A stretch of DNA of 64,000 nucleotides from an uncultured Acidobacteriaceae bacterium (GTDB taxonomy: Bacteria; Acidobacteriota; Terriglobia; Terriglobales; Acidobacteriaceae), in contig CAWGZD010000007.1 in the NCBI GenBank assembly GCA_963827005.1, positions 1,161,837-1,225,836 of the forward strand, in the 5' to 3' direction. The notes beneath the pieces were generated by a model that saw only the letters and a list, made by a program, of their open reading frames with translations, made no database searches and was not told where the DNA came from. Position numbers and translations under genes: made by a program. Positions 29,963 to 64,000 of the stretch are shown piece after piece; within the stretch, counting starts at the first letter, position 1, and each line of letters starts with the position of its first letter.

Positions 29963-30569
29963 TGGATTGAAATCTTAGGGCTGAGGCTGGAGCAAGTCAA
30001 CGAAGGCGAAGAAGTTGGTGCCTTCTCGAAACGATGGTGGTTGAAAAATCTCCATTACGCTCACTGACCAGGTGACCGGGATTTTGAGTGAACGCCGGAT
30101 TTCAACGGTTACCTTCCGGTTCGCCATCAACTGGGAGCCGTCGTGATCACTTGTTGAGGTTGCGGGAATAAATCAGAAGGAGACCCTCTGAGCATCGCTC
30201 GATGATTGCCCTAGCAGCTTGGTGGAACATCTCCCATGGCGGGGTGATGGCTATTCAAACCGTGGAAGCGCGGATTCACGGGCGTCCACCGGAACTTTGC
30301 TGATGTGATCGTAGCCCTTGTGATCGGAGTCGTCCTGTTAGCGCTTCTGCCCGCAAAACGAGAGGCAGTCACGCCAGGAGTTGCGTGAACGAGCGCAGAA
30401 ATCCCACTCGTCTTCTTTTCACGGGTTCTCCCCGATTGGATGACAGTGGTAGCAGCGGCCCTGAGGCAGACTGGCGTTAAATCCCCATAGCACTCATTGA
30501 CCGGTTCCTTGAGCAATCCACGCCGCGCTCCGGCGCCCGCGTAGCCCTCGCTTGCACTATCATCTCCCC

Positions 30570-31857
30570 ATGGCTGCACCCCCGGCCCAACCCACGGTCC
30601 TCACCTTCGAAGAAGCCCGCCGCGTAGTCGAAGAACAAGCGTCCAGGACAACTCCGGGCGCCACCGAAAAGCTCGACCTGCTCCACGCCGCCGGACGAGT
30701 TCTCGCCGAGCCCATCACCGCCGACCGCGACATCCCTCCCTTCCCGCGCTCCACGCGCGATGGCTACGCCGTCCACGCAGCCGATCTGGCAACGCTCCCA
30801 GCCAAGCTACCTGTAATAGGAGAAATCAAAGCCGGGCCGCTGCAAGTCCCATCCCAGCTCAATCGCGGCCAAGCATTTTCCATCATGACCGGAGCGCCCG
30901 CACCGCAGGGCGCCGACGCCGTCGTAATGGTCGAATACACATCGCAAAAAGGCGATATCGTCGAAATCACGAGAGGCATCGCACCCGGCGAAAACATCGT
31001 CGCCCAGGCGGCCGAGGCCAAACGCGGCAGCCTGCTGCTCGCTCGCGGCACGCGCCTCAACGAAGCCGCCATAGCCCTCGCCGCCTCGGTCGGCAAATCA
31101 AGGTTGCAAGTGTTTGATCGTCCTCGCATCGCAGTGCTCGCCACCGGCGATGAGATCGTCGAGGTCGATCCTGCAATCGGCTCCACGCAGATTCGCAACT
31201 CCAACACCTACTCGCTCGCAGTGCAGATCCAGCAGGCCGGCGCCGAACCTGTTCTCTTGCCCATCGCCCCCGATGAACCCCGCAAGCTCCGCCAACTGAT
31301 CGAGCAAGGTCTGCAGTCGGACCTGCTGGTCATGACCGGCGGCGTCTCCATGGGACGCTACGACCTAGTCGAGCAGGTCCTCGCCGAAATGCAAGCCGAA
31401 TTCTTCTTCACCGGAGCAAAAATCCAACCCGGAAGGCCGGTAGTATTCGGCCAAGTCCCATGCGTAGCTGGCTCATGTGGCGCGGGCACTCCTGCCCGCG
31501 GGGCTCCGGCCCCCGCTTCGCAAATATTTCTTCGGCCTCCCCGGAAACCCAGTCTCTACCATGGTCACCTTCGAACTCTTCGTCAGACCCATGCTCGAGG
31601 CATTGTCTGGCGCGTCTCCGCGCCCGCTCACCTTCCTGCACGCCCGGGTCAAATCCGAGATCCGCGTCAAGCCCGGACTCACCCGCTTCCTCCCCGCAAT
31701 CCTCTCCGGCCAGTACGACCGTTCACGGGCCGAACTCGTCCCCTGGCAAGGCTCCGGCGACATCGCCGCCCGCACCCGCTCCAACTGCTACATAGTCATC
31801 CCCCCCGATCGCGAACACATCCCCGCCGGCGACTGGATCGCGGTCTTGCTGCGTTGA
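30570..31857 (+). CDS. moeA: molybdopterin molybdenumtransferase MoeA, one frameshift at about 31480-31525
   Basis: PFPRSTRDGYAV, IMTGAP.P.GADAVV, and TGGVSMGRYDLV in ORF 30552-31925. FGLPGNPVSTMVTFELFVRP and the C-terminal domain are in ORF 31477-31857. Confidence 0.85.
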
Positions 31858-31939
31858 TGCCAGCCCGGCCCTCCGTTCCAGAAACTGAGAACCGAGAACT
31901 GAGAACTGCTCAGCATCCCATGTAAGATAGAACTTCCGC

Positions 31940-38596: not shown

Positions 38597-38672
38597 TGGT
38601 GGGCCCGCCAGGATTCGAACCTGGGACCAATGGATTATGAGTCCACGGCTCTAACCGCTGAGCTACGGGCCC
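38597..38672 (-). tRNA. tRNA-Met (CAT anticodon; elongator-type or lysidine-modified Ile2 not distinguishable), CCA encoded
   Basis: The reverse complement is GGGCCCGTAGCTCAGCGGTTAGAGCCGTGGACTCATAATCCATTGGTCCCAGGTTCGAATCCTGGCGGGCCCACCA. It forms a cloverleaf with a paired 1-72 and a GTTCGAATC T-loop. Confidence 0.9.
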
Positions 38673-52425: not shown

Positions 52426-52577
52426 AGCGACTGCTTGACGGCGGAATATGAGAATCGTTCTCGCGCCGACTTTCTGCACATTGATTTTTTCGAGCTTGAT
52501 TTTCTCCAGCTTGATTTTCTCGAGCCCGACGCGCGGTTTCGTTGACTTGGGGGTTTCAGCAACGTAGGATTCTGCGA

Positions 52578-55294
52578 GTGATCGGGCGGACCATCTCGCA
52601 TTACCGGATTGTGGAAAAACTCGGCGGCGGCGGGATGGGCGTCGTCTACAAGGCGGAAGACACGCGGCTGCACCGGTTTGTTGCGCTGAAGTTCTTGCCC
52701 GAGGAAGTTGCCCGAAACGCCCAGTCCCTGGCCCGTTTTCAGGTGGAAGCGCAGGCGGCCTCGGCGCTGAATCATCCCAACATTTGCACGGTCTATGACA
52801 TTGGCGGGCAGCAGGGCGAAGCCTTCATCGCCATGGAGTTTCTGGACGGGCTTCCGCTGAAGCATCGTATTGCGGGGCGGCCGATGGAAATTGGGACGCT
52901 GTTGCCGCTGGCAATCGAGATTGCCGACGCGCTCGACGCGGCTCACACGCACGGCATTATTCATCGCGACATTAATCCGACAAACATTTTTGTCACCAAG
53001 CGGGGACACGCCAAGATTCTGGATTTCGGACTGGCGAAGCTGACGGTCGACGACCAGGCTCATGTGAGCGGCGGTACATTCGGGGGCGTCACGCATTCGC
53101 CAGAGGACCTTACGCGGCCGGGATCCGCGCTGGGAACGGTTCCTTATATGTCTCCGGAGCAGGCGCTGGGGCGGCCGCTCGACTCGCGCACCGACCTGTT
53201 TTCTTTTGGCGTGGTGCTCTATGAGATGGCGACCGGAGTGCTGCCCTTCCAGGGACAAACATCGGCCGCATTTTTCGATTCTCTGATTCACAGCGTGCCC
53301 GAGTGGCCGCTGCGATTCGATGCGGCGACGCCTGCGGAACTTGAACGCATGGTGAGGAAGGCGCTGGAAAAAGATCCGGGACAGCGCTATCAAAGCGCGG
53401 CCGAGATGCGGGTGGATTTCCAGCGCCTGCAGCGGGGGCTGGGGCTGGGGAAGGCTCGGGTGGCATATCGGCTGCGAGGCCGGCCGTGCCGGACTCGAAG
53501 GAAAGAATCCGGGCCTTGTTTGCTACGGCTCACACCCCCGTTGCGGTTCACCCGAAAGCGAAGATCGCACCGTGGCTAGCGGCGGGCGTCGGTTGCCGCG
53601 GCTGCGGTGGTTGGTGGGCTGCTGTGGGTGAGATCGCCGGAGCCCGCGCCGGTGGTGGTTTCGTCGATGCAGATTACTAACGATGGAGCTTCGAAGCGGT
53701 CGCTGGCCACGGACGGCACGCGGGTGTACTTTTCCGAATATCTGAGTGGACACTCGGTGCTGCGGCAAGTTTCGGCCTCGGGGGGAGAAACGGCGCCGCT
53801 GCCGATCGCGCCGGCGAGCGCCGACATTTACGACTTCTACGCGGGCCGTTCTGAATTGCTGGTGAAAGGCGTGGCGGAAGGTTCGGAAACGGAATGGCCG
53901 GTGTGGGTGCTGCCGGTCCCGGCAGGGTCGTTGCGGCCGGTGGGAAGCATTCTGGCACATGCGGCGGTGTGGGCTCCGGATGGGCAGCGCATCGTATATG
54001 CCAGGCAGTCAAGTTTGTACACGTGCAATTCCGACGGAAGCGATTCGCGGGAGCTTCTGGCGGTAAAGGGCATTCCTTTTGCGCCGCGATTTTCTCCGGA
54101 CGGCCGCCGGTTGCGTTTCACGATTCGGGATACGAACCAGCGCACGTCTTCGTTGTGGGAGGTTTCAGCGGAGGGCAAGGGTTTGCATCCGATATTGGCG
54201 GAGTGGAACAAACCGCCGCAAGAGTTTGGCGGGGCCTGGAGCGCAAATGGAAAATACTTTCTGTTTGACTTGACTCGCGATCACACGCAAAACATCTGGG
54301 CCTTGCGCGATGGTGAGTCTTTGTTTCACAAAGCAAGCACGGCGCCGACGCAGTTGACGGTGGGGCCGCTGTTGTTCAGCAATCCGACTCCGAGCCCGGA
54401 TGGAAAGAAGTTGTTCGTGATTGGGCAGCAGCGGCGGTTCGATCTGGTTCGGCTGGAGGGAAAAGCGGAGCAGTTCTCGGTATATCTTCCCGGCGTGTCG
54501 GCGGGCGAGGCCGATATTCTGGGCAACGGCGAATGGGTAACTTATGTAGCGCATCCGGAACTCACGCTGTGGCGAAGCAAGCCGGACGGAAGTTCGCGGA
54601 TGCAATTGACGTATGCGCCGATGCAGGCGCACATGCCGCGCTGGTCGCCGGATGGAACCCAGATCGCGTTTATGGGATCGCGTCCGGGAAAGCCGTGGAA
54701 GATTTTTGTGATTGCAGCAGAAGGCGGCACGCCGCGGGAAGTGACCGCGGGCGACCATAATCAGGGCGACCGCAATCAAGGCGATCCGACCTGGACGCCC
54801 GAAGGCGATTCGATTGTGTTTGCGGGGATGCCGTGGCTGGAATACGGGGCCGCGGCCGGGCCCAATATTCACGTCGCTGATTTGAAGACTTCGGAAATCT
54901 CGGATCTGCCGGACTCGGAAAACTCTTTTCAGCCCTCGGGTTTCGCCGGATGGGCGCTACGTGGCGGCGCTTTCGGCAGACTCGACGAAGCTGATGCTTT
55001 ACGACGTGGAGAAAAGAAACTGGATGCAGCTTGCGGTTTCGCGATTCGGTTTTGAAAACTGGTCGCGCGACGGCAAGTATCTTTATGCGGAAGATTATTC
55101 CGACAAGAGTCGATGACATTGTGCGCGTGAGTGTCCCGAGCGGAAAAGTGGAAGGACTGCTCAGCCTGAAGGAAATTCCACGAGGGTTTGATCCGTGGGA
55201 GTTCTGGGTAGGGCTGGCGCCCGATGACTCGCCGCTGCTGATGCGGGATCGCAGCACGCAGGAAATTTATAGTTTGGATGTGCGTTCGCCGTAG
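52578..55294 (+). CDS. Ser/Thr kinase-like domain fused to TolB-like PD40 beta-propeller, about 3 frameshifts
   Basis: [42 protein letters not shown] (Asn where the catalytic-loop Lys is expected), DFGLAK, and YMSPEQ. The propeller has [20 protein letters not shown], and [10 protein letters not shown]. Pieces are 52542-53579, 53607-55055 and 55031-55294. Confidence 0.8.
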
Positions 55295-55337: not shown

Positions 55338-55958
55338 CTATTTCGCTTTGTTCAGAAGCGCCAGTGCCTGGTCTGTGGTGATGAATTTTGCACCGAGAGC
55401 CTGGAGCTCAGCAGCGGTCCGTTCTCCATCTGCGGCCGTCAGCGTTTCAATTGCGTCCTCAACTACGAAAACGCGGCGGCCGCGATCGAGCAATCCCTTG
55501 GCCGCGAAGCGGACGCAGTATTCCGTGACCACGCCGAAGACGACGAATTCTGCGTCATCCCCCAATCGCTTCACGAGGTCCGCAGCATGCCGGCTTTCAA
55601 AAATGTCGAGCGTCTGTTTCTCGAGGAGAATCTGCTGGTATTGCGACAGGTCTTGCGGCAGCGAGGCCGTTGGTTCATTCGGTACGGTGACAACTTTCCC
55701 CGTGAGTGCCTCGGAAACATATGCGGAACCGGCGGTGCCTTCGATGCAGTGCGGCGGAAAGGTTTTGAACTCGGGATCATCTTTCGTGTGGTAGCAACCG
55801 TGGGAAACCAGAAAGACGCGGCCCTGGCGGGCGGCGTCGGTGAGCCGGCGAATGTTCGGAAGCAGGCGTTCGGCGCCGGGCACGTAGAGTTTGCCGCCGG
55901 GGAGCATGAAGTCCGCCTGCGTATCGACTTCCCAGAAAACGAGATTGCGAGATACCAT
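55338..55958 (-). CDS. isochorismatase-family cysteine hydrolase, nicotinamidase (PncA)-like
   Basis: MVSRNLVFWEVDTQADF (catalytic Asp region), FPPHCIEGTAGS (compare PncA WPxHCV..T.GA), and VVFGVVTEYCVRF (nucleophile Cys). Confidence 0.65.
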   Translation of the reverse strand: MVSRNLVFWEVDTQADFMLPGGKLYVPGAERLLPNIRRLTDAARQGRVFLVSHGCYHTKDDPEFKTFPPHCIEGTAGSAYVSEALTGKVVTVPNEPTASLPQDLSQYQQILLEKQTLDIFESRHAADLVKRLGDDAEFVVFGVVTEYCVRFAAKGLLDRGRRVFVVEDAIETLTAADGERTAAELQALGAKFITTDQALALLNKAK

Positions 55959-56057
55959 TGCCGTTCCGCCTGACCGCCGTGGTCGTGGTGAGAACAAGCT
56001 TATAACATTCTTTGCGGATGGCGGGGATTCCGTGAAACTCAACCTTGAGGTGTTCCG

Positions 56058-57224
56058 ATGGCACGGCTTCTGATTCGTAATATCGGTTTGATGCTAAGCG
56101 GTGATCTGAAGAATCCGATGCTCGATGCCGACGCCGTGCTCGCCGTGGACGGGAAAATTTCCGCCGTCGGCAAAGAGAAAGAGATCGACGTGGAGGGGGC
56201 GACGCTCGTGATCGACGCCAAGGGCACGACTCTGGCTCCGGGATTGATCGACAGCCACGTGCATCCGGTGGCGGGCGATTGGACGCCGCGGCAGAACCAG
56301 ATTGGCTGGATCGACAGTTATCTGCATGGTGGAGTGACCAGCATGATTTCCGCAGGGGAAGTGCACACTCCCGGAAGACCGAAGGATGTGGTTGGATTGA
56401 AGGCGATGGCGATCTTTGCCCAGCGCGCCTTTTCAGCCTTTCGCCCCGGCGGCGTGAGAATTTATGCGGGCGCTCCGGTGATCGAACATGGAATGGTTGA
56501 GGAAGATTTCAAGGATCTGGCTGCCGCCGGAGTGAGCATGCTCGGGGAAGTTGGCCTGGGCAGCGTGAAGGATGGGGCGACGGCGCGCCAGATGGTCGCG
56601 TGGGCGCGGAAGTACGGCTTGCAAAGTACGATTCATACTGGCGGGCCTTCGATTCCTGGCTCCAGCTTGATCGATAAAGATATTGTGCTCGCGGCCGACG
56701 CCGATGTGATCGGCCACATCAATGGCGGCCACACTGCTCTGCCGGATGAGCAGATCGTTGCGCTGTGCGAGCAATCACCGCGAGCTCTAGAGTTGGTGCA
56801 CAACGGAAACGAAAAGGCGGCGCTGCTTACGTTGCGGACCGCAAAAGAATTAAGGAAGCTTGATCGGGTGATCCTGGGCACGGATTCGCCTGCGGGGTCA
56901 GGAGTGCAGCCGCTTGGGATCCTGCGCATGATCTCGACGCTGTCGTCTCTTGGGGATGTGCCGGCCGAAGTTGCCGTCTGTCTGGCTACGGGCAACACCG
57001 CACGGATCCGAAATCTTGATTGCGGAATGATCGAGCCCGGCCGCGCCGCGACCTTTGTGATGATCGACAAGGCTCAGCACTCGCCGGGAAGGACGGTACT
57101 GGAAAGCATTCAACGCGGAGACTTGCCGGGCATCGGGATGGTCATCATCGACGGTATGGTCAGCGCGCAACGCAGCCGCAACACGCCACCGGCAACAATG
57201 GCGCCGGAAATCGTACGGCAGTGA
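56058..57224 (+). CDS. amidohydrolase-superfamily protein, enamidase-like
   Basis: IRNIGLMLSGDL..PGLIDSHVHP (metal His pair), HTGGPSIPGSS, GHINGGHTA, and a C-terminal SRNTPPA. The length (388 aa) and these blocks match what I recall of the enamidase family. Confidence 0.6.
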   Translation: MARLLIRNIGLMLSGDLKNPMLDADAVLAVDGKISAVGKEKEIDVEGATLVIDAKGTTLAPGLIDSHVHPVAGDWTPRQNQIGWIDSYLHGGVTSMISAGEVHTPGRPKDVVGLKAMAIFAQRAFSAFRPGGVRIYAGAPVIEHGMVEEDFKDLAAAGVSMLGEVGLGSVKDGATARQMVAWARKYGLQSTIHTGGPSIPGSSLIDKDIVLAADADVIGHINGGHTALPDEQIVALCEQSPRALELVHNGNEKAALLTLRTAKELRKLDRVILGTDSPAGSGVQPLGILRMISTLSSLGDVPAEVAVCLATGNTARIRNLDCGMIEPGRAATFVMIDKAQHSPGRTVLESIQRGDLPGIGMVIIDGMVSAQRSRNTPPATMAPEIVRQ

Positions 57225-57244
57225 AATTGTGGATAGCGCCGACG

Positions 57245-58498
57245 CTACTTTGGCATGACTACGACTTCATCCTTCGGTATGGCGTCGAGCGTTGCCTTAT
57301 CGATGCCCAGGTGGGCAATGACCAGCTCCGGAGGCGTATGCGTGAGCCACTCTGAGAGCGCGAGGTCTTGATACAGGTTGCTCTTGAACATCTCCAGAAA
57401 CTTCAGATCGGTGTCGCCCGTGTTCTCGACGTAGTGGGGCAGCGTCTTCTGGACGTAGCCCACGTCTCCGGCTTGAAAGTCCATGGTGCGGGCGCGGCCT
57501 CCGGTAGCGAACACAGTCATTCGTCCCGTACCGCTGATGTAGTACTGCCATTCATCTGCGTTGGGGTGCCAGTGTAGTTCGCGAATGCCTCCGGGGTGGA
57601 CGGTGACAATGGCCGCGGCGATCGTCGTGGATATTTTGAATTTGCTCGAATCGACGATCTTCACCTCGCCGCCCTTGGTGCGCTTGGTGACGGTTTGATC
57701 GGCGGCGCGAAACGCGAAATCTTGCGGCGACAAGCCACGCGTGCCTGCAGAAATCTTCTGATCCTCAGCCAGAGAACCGGGGACCGCGGCCTGGAAGATA
57801 AATTTCTCTTTCCGCGGCATCTTCTCCATAGCCTGCTCGCTCACGCCAAAGTTTTTCGAGAGTACGTCGTGAGGAGTGTGCGCCATCCAGTCGGTGAGCA
57901 GCACGGTCTCGTATTCCGAGAAATTGCCGTCGTCGAACACCAGCAGAAATTCACAACCATCGGGGTTCAGACCCTGGATGGAATGCGGAATTCCCGGGGG
58001 AAAATACCAGAGGTCGCCTTCTGTTACGTCGGCCACGAAACTCTTGCCGTCGGCATCGAGCCCCGTGATTCGCGCGTTTCCATAGAGCATGATGGACCAT
58101 TCGGCAGCCGTGTGCCAGTGCAGTTCTCGAATGCCTCCCGCGGTCAATCTCATGTCCACGCCGGCGATCGACTTGGAAACCGCAAGCTCGCGGACCGTAA
58201 CCTCGCGCGACCATCCCCCCTCCTGCATGCGTTTGTGAGAGAGCGCGAAAGGATACTTGAAGGTCTGCACGCCGCCTGCGTCCGTGGGCGGCGGCAAGAA
58301 GGAATCCGGATTCTGGGCGTCGAGCGGGGGATTGCCGGGGCCGGGCGCGCTCGCACTGCGATCGTTCTTCGTCGGGTAGGGCTTCTGCTCTTGCGCCGCG
58401 GCATCGGCCGATAGCACGCCGGCAGCCGCTAGCGCCGCCGAACTCATTCCCAGGAATCCACGGCGCGAAAAGGTGTCTCGGTTGGCATCATCACTCAT
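57245..58498 (-). CDS. Tat-exported bicupin, oxalate decarboxylase/oxidase family
   Basis: Tat motif SRRGFLGMSSAALAAAGVL, and two cupin motifs: RELHWHTAAEWSIMLYGNARIT and RELHWHPNADEWQYYISGTGRMTVF. Confidence 0.8.
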   Translation of the reverse strand: MSDDANRDTFSRRGFLGMSSAALAAAGVLSADAAAQEQKPYPTKNDRSASAPGPGNPPLDAQNPDSFLPPPTDAGGVQTFKYPFALSHKRMQEGGWSREVTVRELAVSKSIAGVDMRLTAGGIRELHWHTAAEWSIMLYGNARITGLDADGKSFVADVTEGDLWYFPPGIPHSIQGLNPDGCEFLLVFDDGNFSEYETVLLTDWMAHTPHDVLSKNFGVSEQAMEKMPRKEKFIFQAAVPGSLAEDQKISAGTRGLSPQDFAFRAADQTVTKRTKGGEVKIVDSSKFKISTTIAAAIVTVHPGGIRELHWHPNADEWQYYISGTGRMTVFATGGRARTMDFQAGDVGYVQKTLPHYVENTGDTDLKFLEMFKSNLYQDLALSEWLTHTPPELVIAHLGIDKATLDAIPKDEVVVMPK

Positions 58499-58676
58499 AA
58501 TCGCTCCTTCTTTTTCAAATGCAGATATAGAGAAGCTCCCTATCTAGTTTTCTGTTTCGGTAAACGGCGCAGCGGCAATCGTACGCTGTCAATTCTAAAT
58601 CAAGATAACGGCGCAGAGTGGAAACGGTCATGAGTGGTTTGGCGAACGACTAACGAGAAACGACCAAAGCGGTTTC

Positions 58677-59273
58677 CTAACGTAAACCGTCTTCGCCTTT
58701 GATCTGATCCTTCGTCAGCCCACCGACGCGCGCCAGCGGGCGCCCGCTATTCGTGACAGCGACCGCGACCATGATCTCGTTGGCCCGGGGAGCGTCATTG
58801 ATTCGCACCTCCATGCCATCGAAGTGGCTGCGGACGAAGGCAGCGTCTTTGTGCCCCAGAGGAATGTCGAGGGCGACGCCCATGCCGCCTCGCTTCTTGG
58901 AAGATGGGATGAGTGCGGCGCCCTTGCCGAGAACTCGCCGCACTGGCGCGCCGAGTTTAGGATGCAGAATCGCCGCGGCGTGCTCGAGTTCGCCGTTCTC
59001 ACCGACCGCGGCGGCCTTGCCATAACTCTCGACACTGGTCGCCTGCACACCCAGAGCGGCAACCGCGCGAAGCGTGAGCAGTTCCCCGAGTTCCTCGCCG
59101 ATCTCCATCAACGCAGACAGGTCGTCGACGTATTTTCCGGGAAAAGGATTTTCAATCACTGCGACTGCCGCGGCGCGGCGCGTGGGAGGATCGATGGTCC
59201 GGCCCATTTCGCTCTTTGTCTCTTCAAGAAAGGTTGCAATCTTGCGGATCTTCGCTGTCGTAGAGGCTTTCAT
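58677..59273 (-). CDS. 'amino acid synthesis' family protein (DUF1185/PF06684-like), paralogue 1
   Basis: RRAAAVAVIENPFPGKYVDDLSALM..SYGKAAAVGENGELEHAAAILHPKLG..LDIPLGHKDAAFVRSHFDGMEV..GLTKDQIKGEDGLR. Confidence 0.65.
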   Translation of the reverse strand: MKASTTAKIRKIATFLEETKSEMGRTIDPPTRRAAAVAVIENPFPGKYVDDLSALMEIGEELGELLTLRAVAALGVQATSVESYGKAAAVGENGELEHAAAILHPKLGAPVRRVLGKGAALIPSSKKRGGMGVALDIPLGHKDAAFVRSHFDGMEVRINDAPRANEIMVAVAVTNSGRPLARVGGLTKDQIKGEDGLR

Positions 59274-59854
59274 CGCAGTCCGTCTTCTCCTTTAATCTCC
59301 GAGGCTTTGAGGCCGCCAACGCGGGCATGAACGCGGGGGCCGGTGGTCATCACCAGCGCCAGCAGAATCTCATCGGCCCGTGGGGCATCGGCCACGCCGA
59401 CTTCCATGGAATCGAAGTGACTTCGCACGTAGGATGCATTGATGTGCGTGATGGGAACATCGAGCCGAGTGCCGGGTCCGCCAACTTTTTTCGTTGAAGC
59501 CACGATCGCCTTCGCGTCGCCAAGGATCTCGCGCATGGCATAGCCTCCCGGCACGTGCCATAAAGCTCCGTGCTCGAGCTCTCCGTTCGCGCCAACAATG
59601 GCTCCCTTGCCATAACCTTCAACGACTTTTGCATCTCCGCCCAACGCGGCGATCAGGGAGTGCGCCATTTCGAGGCCGAGCGGTTTCAGATCGTCCATGA
59701 ACCCTACAATTTCCTGCACGTACGAACCTGCAAACGGATTGCGAATGATTGCCAGCGCCGCAGCGCGGCGAAGCGGCGTGGCCGAGACGGGACCACCCTC
59801 ATGAAATATTTCCTCGACGACCGTAAATTTCTTTCGAACGTGAACCTCAGGCAT
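59270..59854 (-). CDS. 'amino acid synthesis' family protein (DUF1185/PF06684-like), paralogue 2
   Basis: MPEVHVRKKFTVVEEIFHEGGP..RRAAALAIIRNPFAGSYVQEI..GYGKGAIVGANGELEHGALWH..LDVPITHINASYVRSHFDSMEV..GLKASEIKGEDGLR. There is a 4-nt overlap with paralogue 1. Confidence 0.65.
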   Translation of the reverse strand: MPEVHVRKKFTVVEEIFHEGGPVSATPLRRAAALAIIRNPFAGSYVQEIVGFMDDLKPLGLEMAHSLIAALGGDAKVVEGYGKGAIVGANGELEHGALWHVPGGYAMREILGDAKAIVASTKKVGGPGTRLDVPITHINASYVRSHFDSMEVGVADAPRADEILLALVMTTGPRVHARVGGLKASEIKGEDGLR

Positions 59855-60752
59855 GGATGAGACTCCTGCTGGATTTCTCTGGACCAGCGACAAATTGGCC
59901 TGACTCGAGGCTTGCACCGGCAATGCGAGTCTCGCCAGAGAGTCGGAGCGCCGCGGAGTGGACCAACCCCTCCGACACGAGCGAACGCGCGACTGCAACG
60001 CCTCGATCGAGTGCGGCTGCAATCTCTTCGTGGAAAAGTTTTCCCACCCCTTGGGTCACGAGCCGGTCTCCCAGGTCGCTATCGGGAGCGAGGCAGCGGG
60101 CGGGCAAGCGCATGATCGCTGGATGACTCGGCAAGTCCACAGCGTTGGCGATGATGGTAGCGGCGGCGTCGGCCGTGGCCGCACGGTCGGCAAGAACCGT
60201 AACCGCATCGGCAATGCCGAGTGAAAAGCTGCGGCCGCGCCAACCGCTGGTAGCAATGCCTCGTACCGGCTGCGCCGAGTGCAACTCAACTTTGCCAAAG
60301 AGTGATGGACGATCCGGACGCTCGACCATGCCCACAAAAAAGCGTTCTCCAGGCGAGAGATGCAGCGCAATATCCCCGCCGTTATTAACGTAGGCACGGG
60401 AAAGCGTTGCCGCAGAGCTCATGCAGTCCAGGATTTCCTCCGCGACTGCGCCCGCCACAGCCGCCATCGGAGTGATGAAGGTTCGCTCGCGGTAGGGCAT
60501 GACGGCTGCCGTCATGCGTCTCGCGACAACGCCTACTGCCGGCGGACTACTCGCTGTCGCAGGCTGCCGCAGAAGCGGAAGCTCCTCGCAGAGTTCGTCG
60601 AGCACCGTGACGAAGCGCTCGGCCGCCGCGCGATAGGCCGCATTCACTTCGCTGACGGGCGCAAAGGCCTCGACGACCAGATCGATGGGTCCATCGTGCA
60701 GATGCAGGCGGCGGCCATCGGGCAAGAGTCTTACCTGCGCGCGCGTCCTCAT
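59847..60752 (-). CDS. UPF0280 family protein (ApbE-like fold)
   Basis: LHLHDGPIDLVVEAF, then FITPMAAVAGAVAEEI, then NNGGDIAL, then GIATSGWRGRSFSLGIADAVTVL. Its ends overlap both neighbours (8 nt and 4 nt). Confidence 0.6.
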   Translation of the reverse strand: MRTRAQVRLLPDGRRLHLHDGPIDLVVEAFAPVSEVNAAYRAAAERFVTVLDELCEELPLLRQPATASSPPAVGVVARRMTAAVMPYRERTFITPMAAVAGAVAEEILDCMSSAATLSRAYVNNGGDIALHLSPGERFFVGMVERPDRPSLFGKVELHSAQPVRGIATSGWRGRSFSLGIADAVTVLADRAATADAAATIIANAVDLPSHPAIMRLPARCLAPDSDLGDRLVTQGVGKLFHEEIAAALDRGVAVARSLVSEGLVHSAALRLSGETRIAGASLESGQFVAGPEKSSRSLIHA

Positions 60753-62230
60753 CGGTTGGACCTCGGAGGCTCGGTGTCATTCAGCGGCCAGGGATTCTGC
60801 GGGTTGGCTGAAACATGGCGGCGGCCTTCGCCATGCAGAATGGAATCGAGAGGGCGAACGTGATCGAGGTAGCCGCCGAGCGCAGCGTAATCTTTGAGCT
60901 TCAGCGTGAATTCTATGGGAGCGACCAGCGCCGGCGTGGGCACGTATCCGAATGCTTTTTCGGGCATGCGGCTCACGTCAACCATGAAAGTGATGCCGCC
61001 TCCCGGCCAAACATAAACCGGCGCGCCGCCGCAGGTGACGCGGGTTAGCGCGTCCCTGACCGAATGAGTAAGCCGCACCGGATTTTCGGTGACGCCGGCC
61101 CGCAGCGACCCTCCGGCTCCGCCCATGAACAGGACCGTAGTGAGCGCAGGTTCGCAATTCTCTTTGATGCGGGCGACCGATTCGCGGAGCTCGGCGGGCA
61201 ATTCTTTTTCCACCGGCCGCAGGGACTCGTCGAGTTCGTAATAAGCATGGTGTTCGCCCGTGGTGCTCACCATGAGCAACCGAAGCTTGGGCCATGCGAT
61301 CTTCGGATCGAACTCCTTCACGATAGATAGAGGATCGTCGATGTTCGTACCGCCCCACGCGGTGCCCGGTTCTGCCACCCGGAAGTAGCGCCCTGGAGTG
61401 GAACGCCGGCCCTTCATCTCAATGCCGGTCTCCGGAATGCCCAGCAATTTCCCTGCCTGGTGTTCGGAAAGTACGCCGGTGATGTGGTCATCGACGACGA
61501 CCACTTCATCGACCTTACCGTGCCACTGCCGGGCAAACATTCCGATTGTCGCCGAGCCGCAGCCCACACGCATCCGCTCTTCTCTGGCACCATCGACCAC
61601 CGGCGGCTCGCCCGCCTGCAGAATCATGGTGGCGCCTTCGTCGATCGTGAGTTCGACCGGCTTCCGGTCACACAGGTGCAACAGCGTCTCGCAGGTGACT
61701 GTACCTTCCCTGCGGCTGCCGCCGGTGAGGTGGCGAACTCCGCCCAGTGAGAGCATCTGCGAGCCGTATTCGCTGGTAGTGACGTGCCCAACCGGCTCGC
61801 CTTGTGCGCGTACCAGATTCGTCTCCGGTCCCAGGTATCGATCAGTATCGATCTTCACCTTGACGCCGCAGTAGCTGAAAATGCCTTCCGTGACCACTGT
61901 GACCATGTCCACGTCCTGCACGGCGGAGGAGATGATGAACGGAGCTGGCTTGTAGTCGGGATACGTCGTGCCTGCGCCGATGGCGGTCACAAAAGTGTCA
62001 GGGCCGCTCACGATGCGGCCATCCCATTCCTTTTCACGATCGAGGAAAGGGACGACCGATTCGCCGCGCGACAACGCGCGATCGAGCACAACGTGCGGAT
62101 CAATCCGTATTAATTGACCGTTGTCATTCGCGTAGCGGTCGCACGCACCGGTCCTTCCCGGCTTGATATAGCAGAGCACAGGGCAGGCATCGCAGCGGAT
62201 GGCGTCGTCATCAGCCACGAGCGCCTCCAT
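60749..62230 (-). CDS. 6-hydroxynicotinate reductase-like Fe-S protein (493 aa)
   Basis: The N-terminus MEALVADDDAIRCDACPVLCYIKPGRTGACDRYAN (Cys cluster) is what I recall for proteins annotated 6-hydroxynicotinate reductase. The start is taken at the internal ATG 62230 (GGGAAG upstream). Confidence 0.55.
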   Translation of the reverse strand: MEALVADDDAIRCDACPVLCYIKPGRTGACDRYANDNGQLIRIDPHVVLDRALSRGESVVPFLDREKEWDGRIVSGPDTFVTAIGAGTTYPDYKPAPFIISSAVQDVDMVTVVTEGIFSYCGVKVKIDTDRYLGPETNLVRAQGEPVGHVTTSEYGSQMLSLGGVRHLTGGSRREGTVTCETLLHLCDRKPVELTIDEGATMILQAGEPPVVDGAREERMRVGCGSATIGMFARQWHGKVDEVVVVDDHITGVLSEHQAGKLLGIPETGIEMKGRRSTPGRYFRVAEPGTAWGGTNIDDPLSIVKEFDPKIAWPKLRLLMVSTTGEHHAYYELDESLRPVEKELPAELRESVARIKENCEPALTTVLFMGGAGGSLRAGVTENPVRLTHSVRDALTRVTCGGAPVYVWPGGGITFMVDVSRMPEKAFGYVPTPALVAPIEFTLKLKDYAALGGYLDHVRPLDSILHGEGRRHVSANPQNPWPLNDTEPPRSNR

Positions 62231-64000
62231 TCTTCCCGCTTGTTTTCGCGCTCGATGCACTCGCCAGCATCGCTTCGCGTATGCGATCGGGCGTGGCGGG
62301 AACCCGGCGCATGCGCACGCCGGTCGCGTGGTGAATCGCATTCAGAATGGCAGGCGCAGTTGGAATCACGGCCTGCTCTCCAATTCCTTTTGCTCCGAAC
62401 GGCCCTATGGACGAGGCATCTTCAATCAGGATGAATTCGACTGCGGGGATGTCGCCGGCCGAAGGAATCAGATAATCGTGCAGGTTCTCGCCTTTGCCGG
62501 GAAAAAATTCTTCCATCAATGCCATTCCGATTCCCTGGGCGACGCCGCCCTCGATTTGCCCTTCAATCAAAGTCGGATTGATGGCGCGCCCCACGTCGTG
62601 AGCGGCAACGATCTTGAGCACGCGCACCGTCCCGAGTTCAATATCGACGGCAATCTCGGCTAGGTGAGCGCCGAATCCGTAAACCGCATACGGAACACCC
62701 TGGCCGTTTTCATCGAGCGCGCTGGTCGGGGGATCGAACGTCTGCTCGGTGGTGAGCACGTAGCCATGCTTATCGAGCGGCAGGTTCTGCAAGCAGACGC
62801 TGCTCTCCTTTCCGTCGGATCGAACCGTCAACGTGCCTTCGCCAAACTCGATAACCGCATCGTCTTGATCATGAACTTTTCGAAAACCAGCCAGCCGAAG
62901 AATCGCACGCCGCAGTTCTTTTCCCGCCATGTGCGCGGCTTTGCCCGTGACCAGGGTCTGCCGTGACGCGGAGGTCTTGCCGCAATCCGGCGTGATCGAG
63001 GTATCGCCGGAAATCAAGTCGAAGCAGTCGATGGGCGCGCGCAACGCGTCGGCACAAATCTGCGTCACGATAGTATTCGATCCCTGTCCAATGTCGACCG
63101 CTCCCTGGTGTAGCGCAATTCTGCCGTCGCGCTTCAGGCCGATGCGCATCGTGGAGGGGTTAGGCAGCGACGTGTTGCCGCATCCATACCACATTCCAGC
63201 CACGCCAACGCCGCGACGAATCGGGCCGTTGGTCATGGAATTAAATTCGACCGCTTCGGCGCGCGCCGCATTCCACCGCGGGCGCAAGGCTTCAAAGCAC
63301 GCGCGAATGCCGACACCTTCTCCCATGACCTGGCCGGTGACCGTGGGAGTATGATTGCCCAGCGCGTTCAGGATGCGAAACTCCAGCGGATCGATTCCGA
63401 GGCGGATGGCGAGATCGTCATAGAGTTGCTCTTGAGCGATCGCCATCTGCGGCACTCCAAATCCGCGAAACGCTCCGGCAGGAACGATGTTGGTGTGAAC
63501 GGCACGCGTGAGGGCGCGGTAGTTCGGAACTACGTACGGCCCGGAAGCGTGCACCGGAACCCGCGCGGCAACCGTGGGGCCCCACGAGGAGTAAGCGCCG
63601 GTATTGAAGTCGGCGGTGAAGTCGAGGGCCAGGAGTTTTCCGTCCGCGCTGGCTCCGACCCGGCAATGCATGCGCGCGGGATGGCGTTTGGTGGTGCACA
63701 TGATCGACTCGGTGCGCGAATAAACCATGCGCACGGGCTGCCGCAAATGCCACGCCGCTAGCGCGAGAAACGGCTGCACTGACAAGTCCAGCTTGGTTCC
63801 GAAGCCGCCGCCGACCGCTGTCGGAATAATCCGCACGGCGTCATCGGCAATGCCAAGCAGCTTCGCGATATCGGCGCGGTCCATATAGGGCGACTGGGTG
63901 CAGGCCTGGATCTCGATACGGTCGCCGATGCGCCGGGCAAATCCCGCTTCCGGCTCAATGCAAGCATGCTCGACAAAGCCGGTTTCGAATTCGCCTTCCA
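62211..64000 (-). CDS. xanthine dehydrogenase/aldehyde oxidase-family molybdopterin-binding large subunit, 5' end outside window
   Basis: The same frame continues to the window edge (GEFETGFVEHACIEPEAGFARRIGDRIEIQACTQSPYMDRADIAKLLGI). It carries GGGFGTK, the HASGPYVVPNY..RGFGVPQ blocks, and a C-terminal GIGEQAVIPTAPAILNAI. Confidence 0.85.
   Translation of the reverse strand, partial: EGEFETGFVEHACIEPEAGFARRIGDRIEIQACTQSPYMDRADIAKLLGIADDAVRIIPTAVGGGFGTKLDLSVQPFLALAAWHLRQPVRMVYSRTESIMCTTKRHPARMHCRVGASADGKLLALDFTADFNTGAYSSWGPTVAARVPVHASGPYVVPNYRALTRAVHTNIVPAGAFRGFGVPQMAIAQEQLYDDLAIRLGIDPLEFRILNALGNHTPTVTGQVMGEGVGIRACFEALRPRWNAARAEAVEFNSMTNGPIRRGVGVAGMWYGCGNTSLPNPSTMRIGLKRDGRIALHQGAVDIGQGSNTIVTQICADALRAPIDCFDLISGDTSITPDCGKTSASRQTLVTGKAAHMAGKELRRAILRLAGFRKVHDQDDAVIEFGEGTLTVRSDGKESSVCLQNLPLDKHGYVLTTEQTFDPPTSALDENGQGVPYAVYGFGAHLAEIAVDIELGTVRVLKIVAAHDVGRAINPTLIEGQIEGGVAQGIGMALMEEFFPGKGENLHDYLIPSAGDIPAVEFILIEDASSIGPFGAKGIGEQAVIPTAPAILNAIHHATGVRMRRVPATPDRIREAMLASASSAKTSGKNGGARG

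Follow-up and report, generated by a model that had tools for sequence, protein, structure and literature searches.

The nicotinate fermentation cluster of Eubacterium barkeri is reportedly that of Alhapel et al. 2006, with structures 3HRD and 2VUN. In Proteobacteria, clusters for a route via 1,4,5,6-tetrahydro-6-oxonicotinate (THON) are found in Azorhizobium caulinodans (AZC_2790-2804), Bradyrhizobium (blr3818-3830) and Bradyrhizobiaceae SG-6C (PMC3511419). The cluster of SG-6C and A. caulinodans has been linked to their ability to grow on nicotinate and 6-hydroxynicotinate through THON (PMC3511419; PMC9304392), and in Azorhizobium the continuation via glutarate is known from physiology (PMC3511419).

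Judged by its sequence, the locus in the window (the whole 64,000-nucleotide stretch of DNA analyzed) is the copy, in an acidobacterium from soil, of a known, widespread cluster for the first steps of nicotinate (vitamin B3) breakdown. Publications of 2006 and 2012 already describe this cluster type in Proteobacteria. As a whole, the region is very probably best explained as encoding the upper steps of nicotinate catabolism by the reductive (THON) route in a Terriglobia-class acidobacterium. The preliminary description had proposed a nicotinate/nicotinamide catabolic cluster from the E. barkeri trio of Mo nicotinate dehydrogenase, 6-hydroxynicotinate reductase (Hnr) and enamidase (Ena), which orthology supports. 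Its acidobacterial attribution also holds: the nearest loci are in Ca. Sulfotelmatobacter and other Terriglobia MAGs, and the close relatives are all MAGs.

Gene order and enzyme identity

All eight open reading frames were reproduced at the coordinates and strands first reported, and profile and structure matches bear out the family assignments of the Mo subunit, UPF0280, both DUF1185 proteins, the bicupin, Ena and the isochorismatase homologue (Table 1). The four start/stop overlaps described for the minus-strand run are real. The Mo-subunit stop (62211-62213) and the hnr ATG at 62230 overlap by 20 nt; the remaining stop/ATG overlaps are hnr/UPF0280 at 60749-60752 (ATGA), UPF0280/DUF1185-A at 59847-59854 and DUF1185-A/DUF1185-B at 59270-59273. 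The starts of the 493-aa and 194-aa proteins match gene calls of close relatives.

Table 1. Features of the nicotinate cluster, in window coordinates
Feature	Coordinates	Strand	Basis or remark
Mo hydroxylase subunit, nicotinate-dehydrogenase-like, C-terminal 595 codons	62211..64000	-	open at window end
Hnr (6-hydroxynicotinate reductase), 493 aa, short form	60749..62230	-	homologues, identity to L089 Hnr
UPF0280 / PF27030 ('AbpE_bact'), 301 aa	59847..60752	-	NF003322, 408 bits
DUF1185 (PF06684) paralogue A, 194 aa	59270..59854	-	PF06684, 236 bits
DUF1185 (PF06684) paralogue B, 198 aa	58677..59273	-	PF06684, 247 bits
Bicupin, oxalate decarboxylase family, twin-arginine motif	57245..58498	-	TIGR03404, 548 bits
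Enamidase (Ena), 388 aa	56058..57224	+	2VUN, 367 bits
Isochorismatase-family cysteine hydrolase, nicotinamidase-like, 206 aa	55338..55958	-	PF00857, 76 bits
ena/isochorismatase divergent intergenic region, presumed promoter/operator	55959..56057	.	

The Mo subunit has MoCoBD_1 and MoCoBD_2 domains. Among solved structures it scores highest against E. barkeri NdhM (233 bits) and NdhL (205 bits), together 438 bits versus 238 for the next protein. The part in the window shares 97.8% identity with residues 358-952 of the 952-aa gene in locus L088. In a contig that is 95.7% identical, this Mo ORF corresponds to residues 358-952 of a 952-aa protein in which 2x[2Fe-2S] and Mo parts are fused, and the FAD subunit gene lies just upstream; in close relatives the 2x[2Fe-2S] and Mo domains likewise form one polypeptide of 952-955 aa, with the FAD subunit before it. 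The preliminary description suggested looking beyond 64 kb for 2Fe-2S and FAD subunits; in the relatives the FAD subunit is present, while the 2Fe-2S part is not separate, being fused to the Mo subunit.

Pfam and PDB sequence searches with the 493-aa Hnr returned no match. The protein has thousands of homologues, many named 6-hydroxynicotinate reductase, with identities of 72-78% to those of Bradyrhizobium and Xanthobacter, 61-67% to PGAP-annotated Hnr on plasmids, and 41.9% over 456 aa to the Hnr encoded at L089, an E. barkeri-type locus. It is the short form, without an N-terminal 2x[4Fe-4S] ferredoxin domain. Residues C13, C16, C20 and C30 are invariant, as is the MRVGCGSA motif in set A5 (41 sequences); C224 is near-invariant in A1, and the Thr of GCGSAT is variable.

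The 388-aa protein aligns end to end with the E. barkeri enamidase 2VUN, without gaps, and keeps its DxHVH, HTGG and HINGG motifs; by this alignment it is an enamidase orthologue over its full length. Identity to L089 Ena is 44.8%, and ena lies within 9 kb in all 24 acidobacterial relatives. The cluster assignment had been made to depend on the 493-aa and 388-aa proteins grouping with Hnr and Ena, and both do.

The isochorismatase homologue has P. horikoshii nicotinamidase 1IM5 as its best solved match (58.6 bits), with the Asp/Lys/Cys triad, PPHC and TEYCV aligned and the metal-binding Asp replaced by Cys. It scores 31.5 bits against a PncA equivalog cut-off of 174. Of the acidobacterial loci 21/24 carry the gene, and of the proteobacterial ones 0/36. 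The family given earlier stands, but the start at 56042 most likely does not, 55958 being the likelier position. The adjoining intergenic region has a short stretch common to the closest relatives L001 and L005, CGCAAAGAATGTTATAAGCTT, and an imperfect palindrome at 55993-56012; no match to a sigma-70 consensus was found in 55959..56057.

In the proposed pathway, the nicotinamidase-like cysteine hydrolase would probably convert nicotinamide, its putative substrate, to nicotinate. The Mo hydroxylase, of the three-domain type with an FAD subunit and a subunit fusing 2x[2Fe-2S] to Mo, would convert nicotinate to 6-hydroxynicotinate, a step we infer because of orthology to E. barkeri NdhFSLM. Hnr would then reduce the C4=C5 bond to give THON, and Ena would open the THON ring by hydrolysis, yielding 2-formylglutarate and ammonia.

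UPF0280, DUF1185 and the bicupin

UPF0280 and DUF1185 accompany hnr in 72-73 of the 74 surveyed loci having enough downstream sequence. All 31 acidobacterial loci have hnr-UPF0280-DUF1185x2, and 24/24 also have ena and the FAD subunit, with the fused FeS-Mo gene directly upstream. Proteobacterial loci have UPF0280 in 41/43 and DUF1185 in 42/43, and six anaerobe and Firmicute loci also have both with hnr. Anaerobe loci with a ferredoxin-domain Hnr hold the hnr/UPF0280/DUF1185 trio plus Fer2, FAD, Mo and ena genes; three Firmicute loci have the same gene set, to which L089 and L090 add B12 mutase, PrpF, ICL and aconitase genes. UPF0280 directly follows hnr in all these lineages, and lies immediately 3' of it in almost all loci examined. 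By sequence, L089 comes from E. barkeri or something closely related, since its Ena shares 97% identity with the 2VUN sequence and its NdhM matches 3HRD_B at 713 bits over 330/330 residues. Since UPF0280 and DUF1185 co-occur with hnr in every lineage examined, they belong to a shared upper pathway, as fixed components of this module in fermentative and respiratory lineages alike.

UPF0280 is, on motif evidence, a distant homologue of the ApbE superfamily. The NNGGD, ATSG and ADAAAT motifs, invariant in UPF0280, line up with their counterparts in an ApbE, and ApbE FAD:protein FMN transferases (PF02424) have the same motif order (NxGGD, ATSG, SVxVLA...ADAxAT). An hhalign comparison with one ApbE sequence aligns NxGGD, ATSG and ADAxAT (probability 77%, E 2e-5). 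The window protein has no PF02424 match in Pfam; its orthologues match PF27030, which Pfam names AbpE_bact, and weakly PF02424. The family profile reaches PDB 2O34 (66 bits) and none of the solved ApbE structures. Unlike ApbE, UPF0280 is a separate family (UPF0280 / PF27030), cytoplasmic, with no evident signal peptide.

Alhapel et al. 2006 reportedly found a covalently bound flavin in Hnr. UPF0280 might be an ApbE-type maturation factor that installs it, a tentative assignment for which our confidence falls somewhat short of even. The canonical ApbE acceptor motif is absent from Hnr, and no recognized acceptor motif was found in UPF0280 neighbors; the near-invariant Cys224 in Hnr would suit autocatalytic cysteinyl-flavin attachment without a transferase. 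The literature searched holds no report of a tested UPF0280 activity. Alhapel et al. 2006 are also reported to have found E. barkeri Hnr and Ena each active when isolated, so UPF0280 and DUF1185 may be dispensable in vitro.

DUF1185-A and DUF1185-B are 49% identical to each other. Paralogue B is the universally conserved copy and the best-conserved protein of the cluster (55.5% identity to the single DUF1185 of L089; 296 bits against PDB 2QTP). Paralogue A (44% to the same protein) is a lineage-variable second copy missing in Bradyrhizobium-type loci. The dimer-interface cavity residues His, Glu and Arg are invariant in the nicotinate-linked set; the DUF1185 crystal structures are those of SPO0826 (2QTP) and BB2672 (3BYQ), solved by JCSG (PMC2954203). 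The hexameric protein could use this His/Glu/Arg cavity to assist the enamidase step or to handle a labile enamine or aldehyde product, although we regard this as doubtful. The transporter type noted in connection with the DUF1185 structures is, in nicotinate clusters, the proposed importer of nicotinate (PMC3511419).

The bicupin had been presented as a Tat-exported partner of the cluster. Its family is clear (TIGR03404 cut-off 254) and export is likely, given an RRGFLG twin-arginine motif with a TAT model score just under threshold (16.4 versus 16.7). Conserved membership failed: tblastn (E<=1e-3) found it in 0/91 related loci, and its slot in relatives is empty or holds unrelated genes. The gene lies 178 bp 3' of DUF1185-B with its own GAAGGAG ribosome-binding site and is not translationally coupled. 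It is an oxalate-decarboxylase-family passenger in a variable slot, outside the pathway.

Alternative readings

Instead of acting in maturation and as an auxiliary enzyme, UPF0280 and DUF1185 could be part of an Hnr holoenzyme, as subunits with a structural role or one in electron transfer, with the adjacent Mo hydroxylase donating electrons directly in Acidobacteria. If so, nicotinate-to-THON conversion would be redox-neutral in Acidobacteria. The FeS-Mo, hnr, UPF0280, DUF1185-A and DUF1185-B genes are translationally coupled, which fits, although gene overlap indicates co-expression and not complex formation. It also fits that the 2x[4Fe-4S] input domain is lost from the short Hnr, and that the acidobacterial loci have no ferredoxin-NADP reductase (FNR) gene within 9 kb (0/24) and have FeS-Mo directly upstream of hnr (24/24); proteobacterial loci have FNR in 20/36, with Mo genes often elsewhere. 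DUF1185, however, is cysteine-free and has no known cofactor, and it follows ena, not hnr, in two B12-route Firmicute loci. True fusions join Hnr to GltD-like NAD(P)H oxidoreductases and so suggest that the donor is pyridine-nucleotide-linked; an apparent Hnr-UPF0280 fusion (P0033) proved to be a frameshift artefact, and no real one was found. We consider this arrangement unlikely.

It is less probable still that the substrate is another N-heterocycle, such as a purine, 6-chloronicotinate, isonicotinate or picolinate. Substrate specificity in the Mo family is not readable from sequence, the top NCBIfam models of the Mo subunit are xanthine dehydrogenases (all below cut-off), and the isochorismatase homologue departs from canonical PncA. 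Nicotinate is favored by the NdhL plus NdhM score, by the end-to-end conservation of Ena and Hnr, which are specific to THON chemistry, and by the growth phenotypes linked to the homologous proteobacterial clusters.

The preliminary description's proposal that two DUF1185 proteins, UPF0280 and the bicupin take the place of the late enzymes of E. barkeri in an undescribed continuation from 2-formylglutarate is very improbable: late fermentative genes are indeed missing from the window, and L001, a relative with 90% identity, has none within 10 kb, and the conserved DUF1185 cavity might bind a dicarboxylate, but E. barkeri-type and Acetobacterium operons pair UPF0280/DUF1185 with B12 mutase, PrpF (methylitaconate) isomerase, ICL-type (dimethylmalate) lyase and aconitase-type dehydratase, so UPF0280 and DUF1185 are not alternatives to the late enzymes, a DUF1185 decarboxylase role misfits organisms that reduce 2-formylglutarate without decarboxylation, and the bicupin, missing from related loci, is probably exported and separately expressed.

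Comparison with described clusters

The E. barkeri cluster, as represented by L089, shares with the window a Mo nicotinate dehydrogenase, Hnr, enamidase, UPF0280 after hnr, and DUF1185, at 35-55% protein identity. The Hnr cores have the CxxCxxxCx9C and MRVGCGSA motifs in common; the window Hnr differs in lacking the ferredoxin domain. The Mo subunit in the window type is fused to the 2Fe-2S domain, whereas the E. barkeri type has split NdhS, NdhL and NdhM, and there are two DUF1185 copies rather than one. The window adds a nicotinamidase-like gene and has no nearby hgd, B12 mutase, isomerase, dehydratase or lyase genes.

Proteobacterial THON clusters share with the window the short Hnr, UPF0280, DUF1185 (a single copy in Bradyrhizobium) and enamidase; some loci also have the same FAD and fused FeS-Mo genes. 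Besides the difference in FNR, a Liv-type ABC transporter occurs in 33/36 proteobacterial and 0/24 acidobacterial loci. In both, the route that likely follows, via glutarate, is encoded away from the cluster. For the acidobacterium, the Azorhizobium route would be the most likely path from 2-formylglutarate onward, with decarboxylation and oxidation to glutarate and then glutaryl-CoA, encoded elsewhere.

Gene content and enzyme assignments

The genes at 55338–64000 lie mostly on the minus strand, where the run from the molybdenum (Mo) hydroxylase gene through the second DUF1185 gene overlaps by 20, 4, 8 and 4 nt. The ORF list and a start-codon check agree on these values with the preliminary description. 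For the isochorismatase-fold gene, the most likely start gives a protein matching its relatives.

Genes of the nicotinate cluster, in order from the window end
Gene	Position	Strand	Family or structural match
Mo-hydroxylase subunit	62211 to beyond 64000	minus	MoCoBD_1 and MoCoBD_2 (family scan)
6-Hydroxynicotinate reductase (Hnr), 493 aa	60749–62230	minus	no match in family scans; homologues named Hnr
UPF0280, 301 aa	59847–60752	minus	NF003322, 408 bits
DUF1185-A, 194 aa	59270–59854	minus	PF06684
DUF1185-B, 198 aa	58677–59273	minus	PF06684
Bicupin, 417 aa	57245–58498	minus	TIGR03404, 548 bits (cut-off 254)
Enamidase-like amidohydrolase (Ena), 388 aa	56058–57224	plus, convergent with bicupin	2VUN alignment
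Isochorismatase-fold gene, 206 aa	start most likely 55958	divergent from amidohydrolase gene	PF00857

The general assignment to nicotinate catabolism is borne out by orthology of Hnr, Ena and the Mo nicotinate dehydrogenase (Ndh) to the Eubacterium barkeri enzymes. As a reference we used L089, an E. barkeri-type locus whose Ena is 97% identical to the E. barkeri enamidase structure 2VUN and whose NdhM matches the full 330 residues of 3HRD_B (E. barkeri nicotinate dehydrogenase) at 713 bits. Both the 493-aa and the 388-aa protein group with their counterparts: the window Hnr is 41.9% identical to the L089 Hnr over 456 aa, and the window Ena is 44.8% identical to the L089 Ena and aligns to 2VUN without gaps over 385 residues (367 bits). 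Exact-sequence look-ups of the window Hnr and DUF1185-B returned no match; relatives of 90–98% identity stood in for them.

Hnr homologues number in the thousands, many labelled 6-hydroxynicotinate reductase (names from JGI, NCBI and PGAP), and the window protein is 61–67% identical to PGAP-annotated Hnr on alpha- and betaproteobacterial plasmids. Both invariant motifs, CxxCxxxCx9C and MRVGCGSA, are retained, and the protein begins at the CxxCxxxC motif, without the N-terminal 2x[4Fe-4S] ferredoxin domain; this Fer4 dicluster domain is restricted to the forms from anaerobes and Firmicutes (~40% identity). The AlphaFold model of Hnr (ma50e79edc0bc; pLDDT 77, pTM 0.71) is confident over residues ~98–460, but a Foldseek search of the PDB with it gave no match at E<=0.001. 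Judged from this model, Hnr appears to lack a solved structural relative, so no mechanism is borrowed from a solved fold. Two proteins of ~970 aa in the representative library (P0128 and P0133) have a 4Fe-4S/GltD-like NAD(P)H oxidoreductase fused N-terminally to Hnr, suggesting that certain lineages supply electrons to the enzyme via NAD(P)H. Given these fusions, and the ferredoxin-NADP reductase (FNR) gene beside hnr in Proteobacteria, the electron donor of Hnr is probably lineage-specific. A 754-aa protein from a public genome (P0033) was considered as an Hnr–UPF0280 fusion that would serve as Rosetta-stone evidence, but its Arg-rich, out-of-frame middle marks it as an assembly or frameshift artefact.

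The Mo ORF corresponds to residues 358–952 of a 952-aa protein with an N-terminal 2x[2Fe-2S] domain, as seen in contig L088, 95.7% identical at the DNA level, and in the relative L001, 90% identical. Among solved proteins, the Mo ORF is closest to NdhM (233 bits) and NdhL (205 bits), which between them span both of its halves, and the protein ranked next reaches 238 bits; identity to the L089 NdhL and NdhM is 40–44%. The preliminary description had proposed looking past 64 kb for the FAD and 2Fe-2S subunits. Both components exist in L088 and L001, which show the missing upstream part, and the Mo hydroxylase therefore has its electron-transfer components: an FAD-binding subunit is encoded directly upstream of the Mo gene, past the window end, and the 2Fe-2S domain is fused to the Mo subunit rather than separate. 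Counting this sequence from the relatives, the XDH-family Ndh composition (FAD, 2Fe-2S, Mo) is present. By orthology to the characterised enzymes, Mo hydroxylation would be followed by ene-type reduction by Hnr and then by ring hydrolysis and deamination by Ena, an orthologue of the bifunctional amidohydrolase that acts on 1,4,5,6-tetrahydro-6-oxonicotinate (THON).

The 206-aa isochorismatase-family hydrolase scores 31.5 bits to NF008623, far below the PncA equivalog cut-off of 174. Its best solved match is the Pyrococcus horikoshii nicotinamidase 1IM5, with which the Asp/Lys/Cys triad and the PPHC and TEYCV motifs align; the position of the metal-binding Asp is Cys. From these sequence matches, an initial nicotinamidase step by this hydrolase is plausible.

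Around the cluster we found no promoter consensus, and terminator signals are not above shuffled expectation. The divergent intergenic region between ena and the isochorismatase gene (55959–56057) contains an imperfect palindrome at 55993–56012 and a short stretch, CGCAAAGAATGTTATAAGCTT, common to the window, L001 and L005. This element, which may be an operator or promoter element, is not kept in more distant Terriglobia. The sole RNA gene and Rfam match in the 64 kb is a tRNA-Met (CAT) at 38597–38672 on the minus strand; no riboswitch or other Rfam element was found. On the plus strand, a Ser/Thr-kinase-like ORF (52542–53579) and a PD40/beta-propeller ORF (53607–55055) are separated by a stop codon, where L001 has one 903-aa kinase–PD40 gene adjoining the isochorismatase gene; the split in the window may be genuine, or it may reflect a pseudogene or a sequencing error. 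MoeA (molybdopterin molybdenumtransferase) is encoded at 30552–31925 on the plus strand, ~30 kb from the Mo hydroxylase, and nothing ties it to the nicotinate cluster.

Gene neighbourhoods across lineages

A scan of one genome per GTDB species gave at least 593 Hnr-encoding stretches, from which 80 loci were kept. These and other fetched loci (91 in total) were searched by tblastn with the window proteins. The narrower scan alignment yielded Acidobacteriota and Alphaproteobacteria only; the E. barkeri-type locus was reached via the 2VUN sequence.

UPF0280 directly follows hnr in all lineages examined. Among Acidobacteriota, all 31 loci whose downstream sequence is long enough have UPF0280 and a pair of DUF1185 genes after hnr, and all 24 with full flanks have ena and the FAD subunit gene, with the fused FeS-Mo gene directly upstream of hnr. 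The isochorismatase gene is present in 21 of 24 acidobacterial loci versus none of 36 proteobacterial loci. No FNR or Liv-type ABC binding protein was found within 9 kb in the 24 acidobacterial relatives, and the window's own ORFs from 50 to 64 kb include neither FNR nor a Liv-type ABC transporter; proteobacterial loci have FNR in 20/36 and the binding protein in 33/36. UPF0280 occurs in 41 of 43 proteobacterial loci and at least one DUF1185 gene in 42, with two DUF1185 genes in 14 only. Loci from Bradyrhizobium and relatives (L043, L051–L083) have a single DUF1185 gene after UPF0280, of the paralogue-B type, so the second copy is dispensable or lineage-specific. One Pseudosulfitobacter plasmid locus (L003; 12946–14616 and upstream) has a Rieske dioxygenase alpha subunit gene following its two DUF1185 genes, and genes for hydantoinase/oxoprolinase A and B adjoining the Mo enzyme, which hints at lineage-specific pathway extensions.

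The fermentative loci contain the same two families. In L089 the order is LysR regulator, hnr (with Fer4), UPF0280, hgd-like dehydrogenase, ndhF, ndhS, ndhL, ndhM, transporter, ena, DUF1185, B12-binding mutase, PrpF-type isomerase, MutL-like protein, ICL/PEP-mutase-type lyase, a 468-aa protein, and the aconitase large and small subunits. The Acetobacterium bakii locus is organised in the same way. The order in Clostridium sp. DL-VIII is ena-hnr-UPF0280-DUF1185, and in three MAG loci from anaerobes, where Hnr is of the Fer4 type, it is Fer2/FAD/Mo/ena/hnr/UPF0280/DUF1185; two of these three also have an aldehyde dehydrogenase. The late fermentative genes (hgd, hmd, B12 mutase, isomerase, dimethylmalate dehydratase/lyase) are present in L089 and in the Acetobacterium locus L090; none was found in the window ORFs scanned or within 10 kb in L001.

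These arrangements bear on the proposal, made from the window sequence, that two DUF1185 proteins, UPF0280 and a bicupin replace the late fermentation enzymes and encode a different, undescribed continuation of the pathway. Since UPF0280 and DUF1185 coexist with the late enzymes in L089 and A. bakii, they belong to the part of the pathway common to fermenters and respirers, and the case for their encoding a different continuation falls away. Both families accompany Hnr and Ena universally, and the cluster type of the model organism is no exception. This negative result is the more useful one: UPF0280 and DUF1185 do not mark a new pathway branch.

The bicupin likewise does not stand in for a late enzyme, and it is the part of an otherwise sound initial observation that did not hold. 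Its gene starts after a 178-bp gap with its own GAAGGAG ribosome-binding site, and tblastn with the protein gave no match at E<=1e-3 across the 91 loci. It belongs to the oxalate-decarboxylase family and has two Cupin_1 stretches with HWH...E...H motifs in both halves, and a twin-arginine motif, which suggests that it works outside the cytoplasm. Across Terriglobia (L005–L037) the slot between DUF1185-B and ena is variable: it is empty in some loci and elsewhere holds a ~470-aa second amidohydrolase, a metallo-beta-lactamase-fold hydrolase, or an FG-GAP or MASE1-PAS-GAF-GGDEF protein. Among the Terriglobia loci compared, only the window has a bicupin there. The bicupin is a passenger in this slot.

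Candidate roles of UPF0280 and DUF1185

UPF0280 resembles ApbE at a distance. The window protein is 34.5% identical to its L089 counterpart and has no Pfam match at E<=0.01; orthologues give weak or faint matches to PF02424, and the Pfam name for the family is AbpE_bact. A UPF0280 family profile finds only 2O34 among solved structures and does not reach solved ApbE structures, and hhalign against one ApbE gives a probability of 77% (E 2e-5). All 16 UPF0280 sequences compared carry NNGGD and ADAAAT unchanged, and these motifs line up with NaGGD and ADALAT of an ApbE; an ATSG motif is likewise invariant and aligned with its ApbE counterpart. We take GGD and DAxxT to be the nucleotide/metal-site motifs of ApbE. 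Because Hnr reportedly holds a covalently bound flavin, the most economical hypothesis from these alignments is that UPF0280 flavinylates Hnr. Its weak point is the acceptor: no canonical ApbE acceptor motif is conserved in Hnr sequences and the Thr in GCGSAT is variable, yet Cys224 is nearly invariant; T442 and a Ser/Thr at position 114 are conserved.

DUF1185 is the best-conserved protein of the set, with DUF1185-B and DUF1185-A 55.5% and 44% identical to the L089 protein. The family is cysteine-free and forms a hexamer with a conserved His/Glu/Arg cavity, and its gene adjoins ena in both B12-route Firmicute loci. We suggest, with low confidence, that DUF1185 helps the enamidase step or handles the labile enamidase product. 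A role as 2-formylglutarate decarboxylase is disfavoured because DUF1185 coexists with the late fermentation enzymes in the B12-route Firmicute clusters. Weak DUF1185 matches to OMP decarboxylase (E 0.1–0.9) were noise.

The solved DUF1185 structure 2QTP (SPO0826, from Ruegeria (Silicibacter) pomeroyi) scores 296 bits to DUF1185-B. Its structural paper interprets the neighbouring Liv-type ABC genes as a sign of amino-acid metabolism and makes no mention of nicotinate (PMC2954203). The gene context of 2QTP looks like a nicotinate cluster of the L003 kind and gains a new reading.

These roles can be joined in one tentative and rather unlikely scheme: UPF0280 would be a dedicated cytoplasmic ApbE-type transferase for the Hnr flavin, DUF1185 an auxiliary enzyme of the enamidase step, and acidobacterial Hnr would take electrons directly from the hydroxylase. 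Translation of the ferredoxin-less acidobacterial Hnr is coupled to that of the Mo hydroxylase, and no FNR gene lies close by. If electrons did pass directly to Hnr, conversion of nicotinate to THON would be a redox-neutral hydration. The survey narrows the roles of UPF0280 and DUF1185 to the common upper pathway and leaves two testable assignments for long-standing unknown families: Hnr flavinylation factor and enamidase-step helper.

Relation to known nicotinate clusters

Hnr homologues occur in >590 GTDB species genomes, and Terriglobia, abundant soil and peat bacteria, join the organisms predicted to obtain nitrogen and carbon from nicotinate or nicotinamide via the reductive THON route. 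The ecological point is modest. Our literature searches found no paper on a nicotinate pathway in Acidobacteria and, for UPF0280, DUF1185 and PF06684, no functional study. The first three genes are said to have been reported already in nine Proteobacteria.

Two known systems are closest. The E. barkeri type has Ndh-, Hnr- and Ena-type proteins in common with the window, but there Hnr has the two-[4Fe-4S] ferredoxin domain, the Mo subunit is split into NdhL and NdhM, and the late fermentative genes are adjacent; the window has none of these. The other is the proteobacterial THON type. In Bradyrhizobiaceae strain SG-6C, which grows on nicotinate and 6-hydroxynicotinate, the Hnr homologue is 42% identical to E. 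barkeri Hnr, and the cluster is kept in Azorhizobium caulinodans ORS571, Bradyrhizobium japonicum and Rhodopseudomonas palustris; Azorhizobium takes THON to TCA intermediates via glutarate (Shettigar et al., 2012; PMC3511419). The same THON route has been summarised for E. barkeri and A. caulinodans (PMC9304392). The question of what UPF0280 and DUF1185 do is real and not peculiar to the window, having been raised already in 2012. The proteobacterial type has the same short hnr followed by UPF0280 and DUF1185 with an enamidase nearby, but often includes the FNR and Liv-type ABC transporter genes. The window cluster is an acidobacterial representative of a cluster type already known, and its accessories are lineage-specific: an isochorismatase gene is gained, and the FNR and ABC transporter genes are missing.
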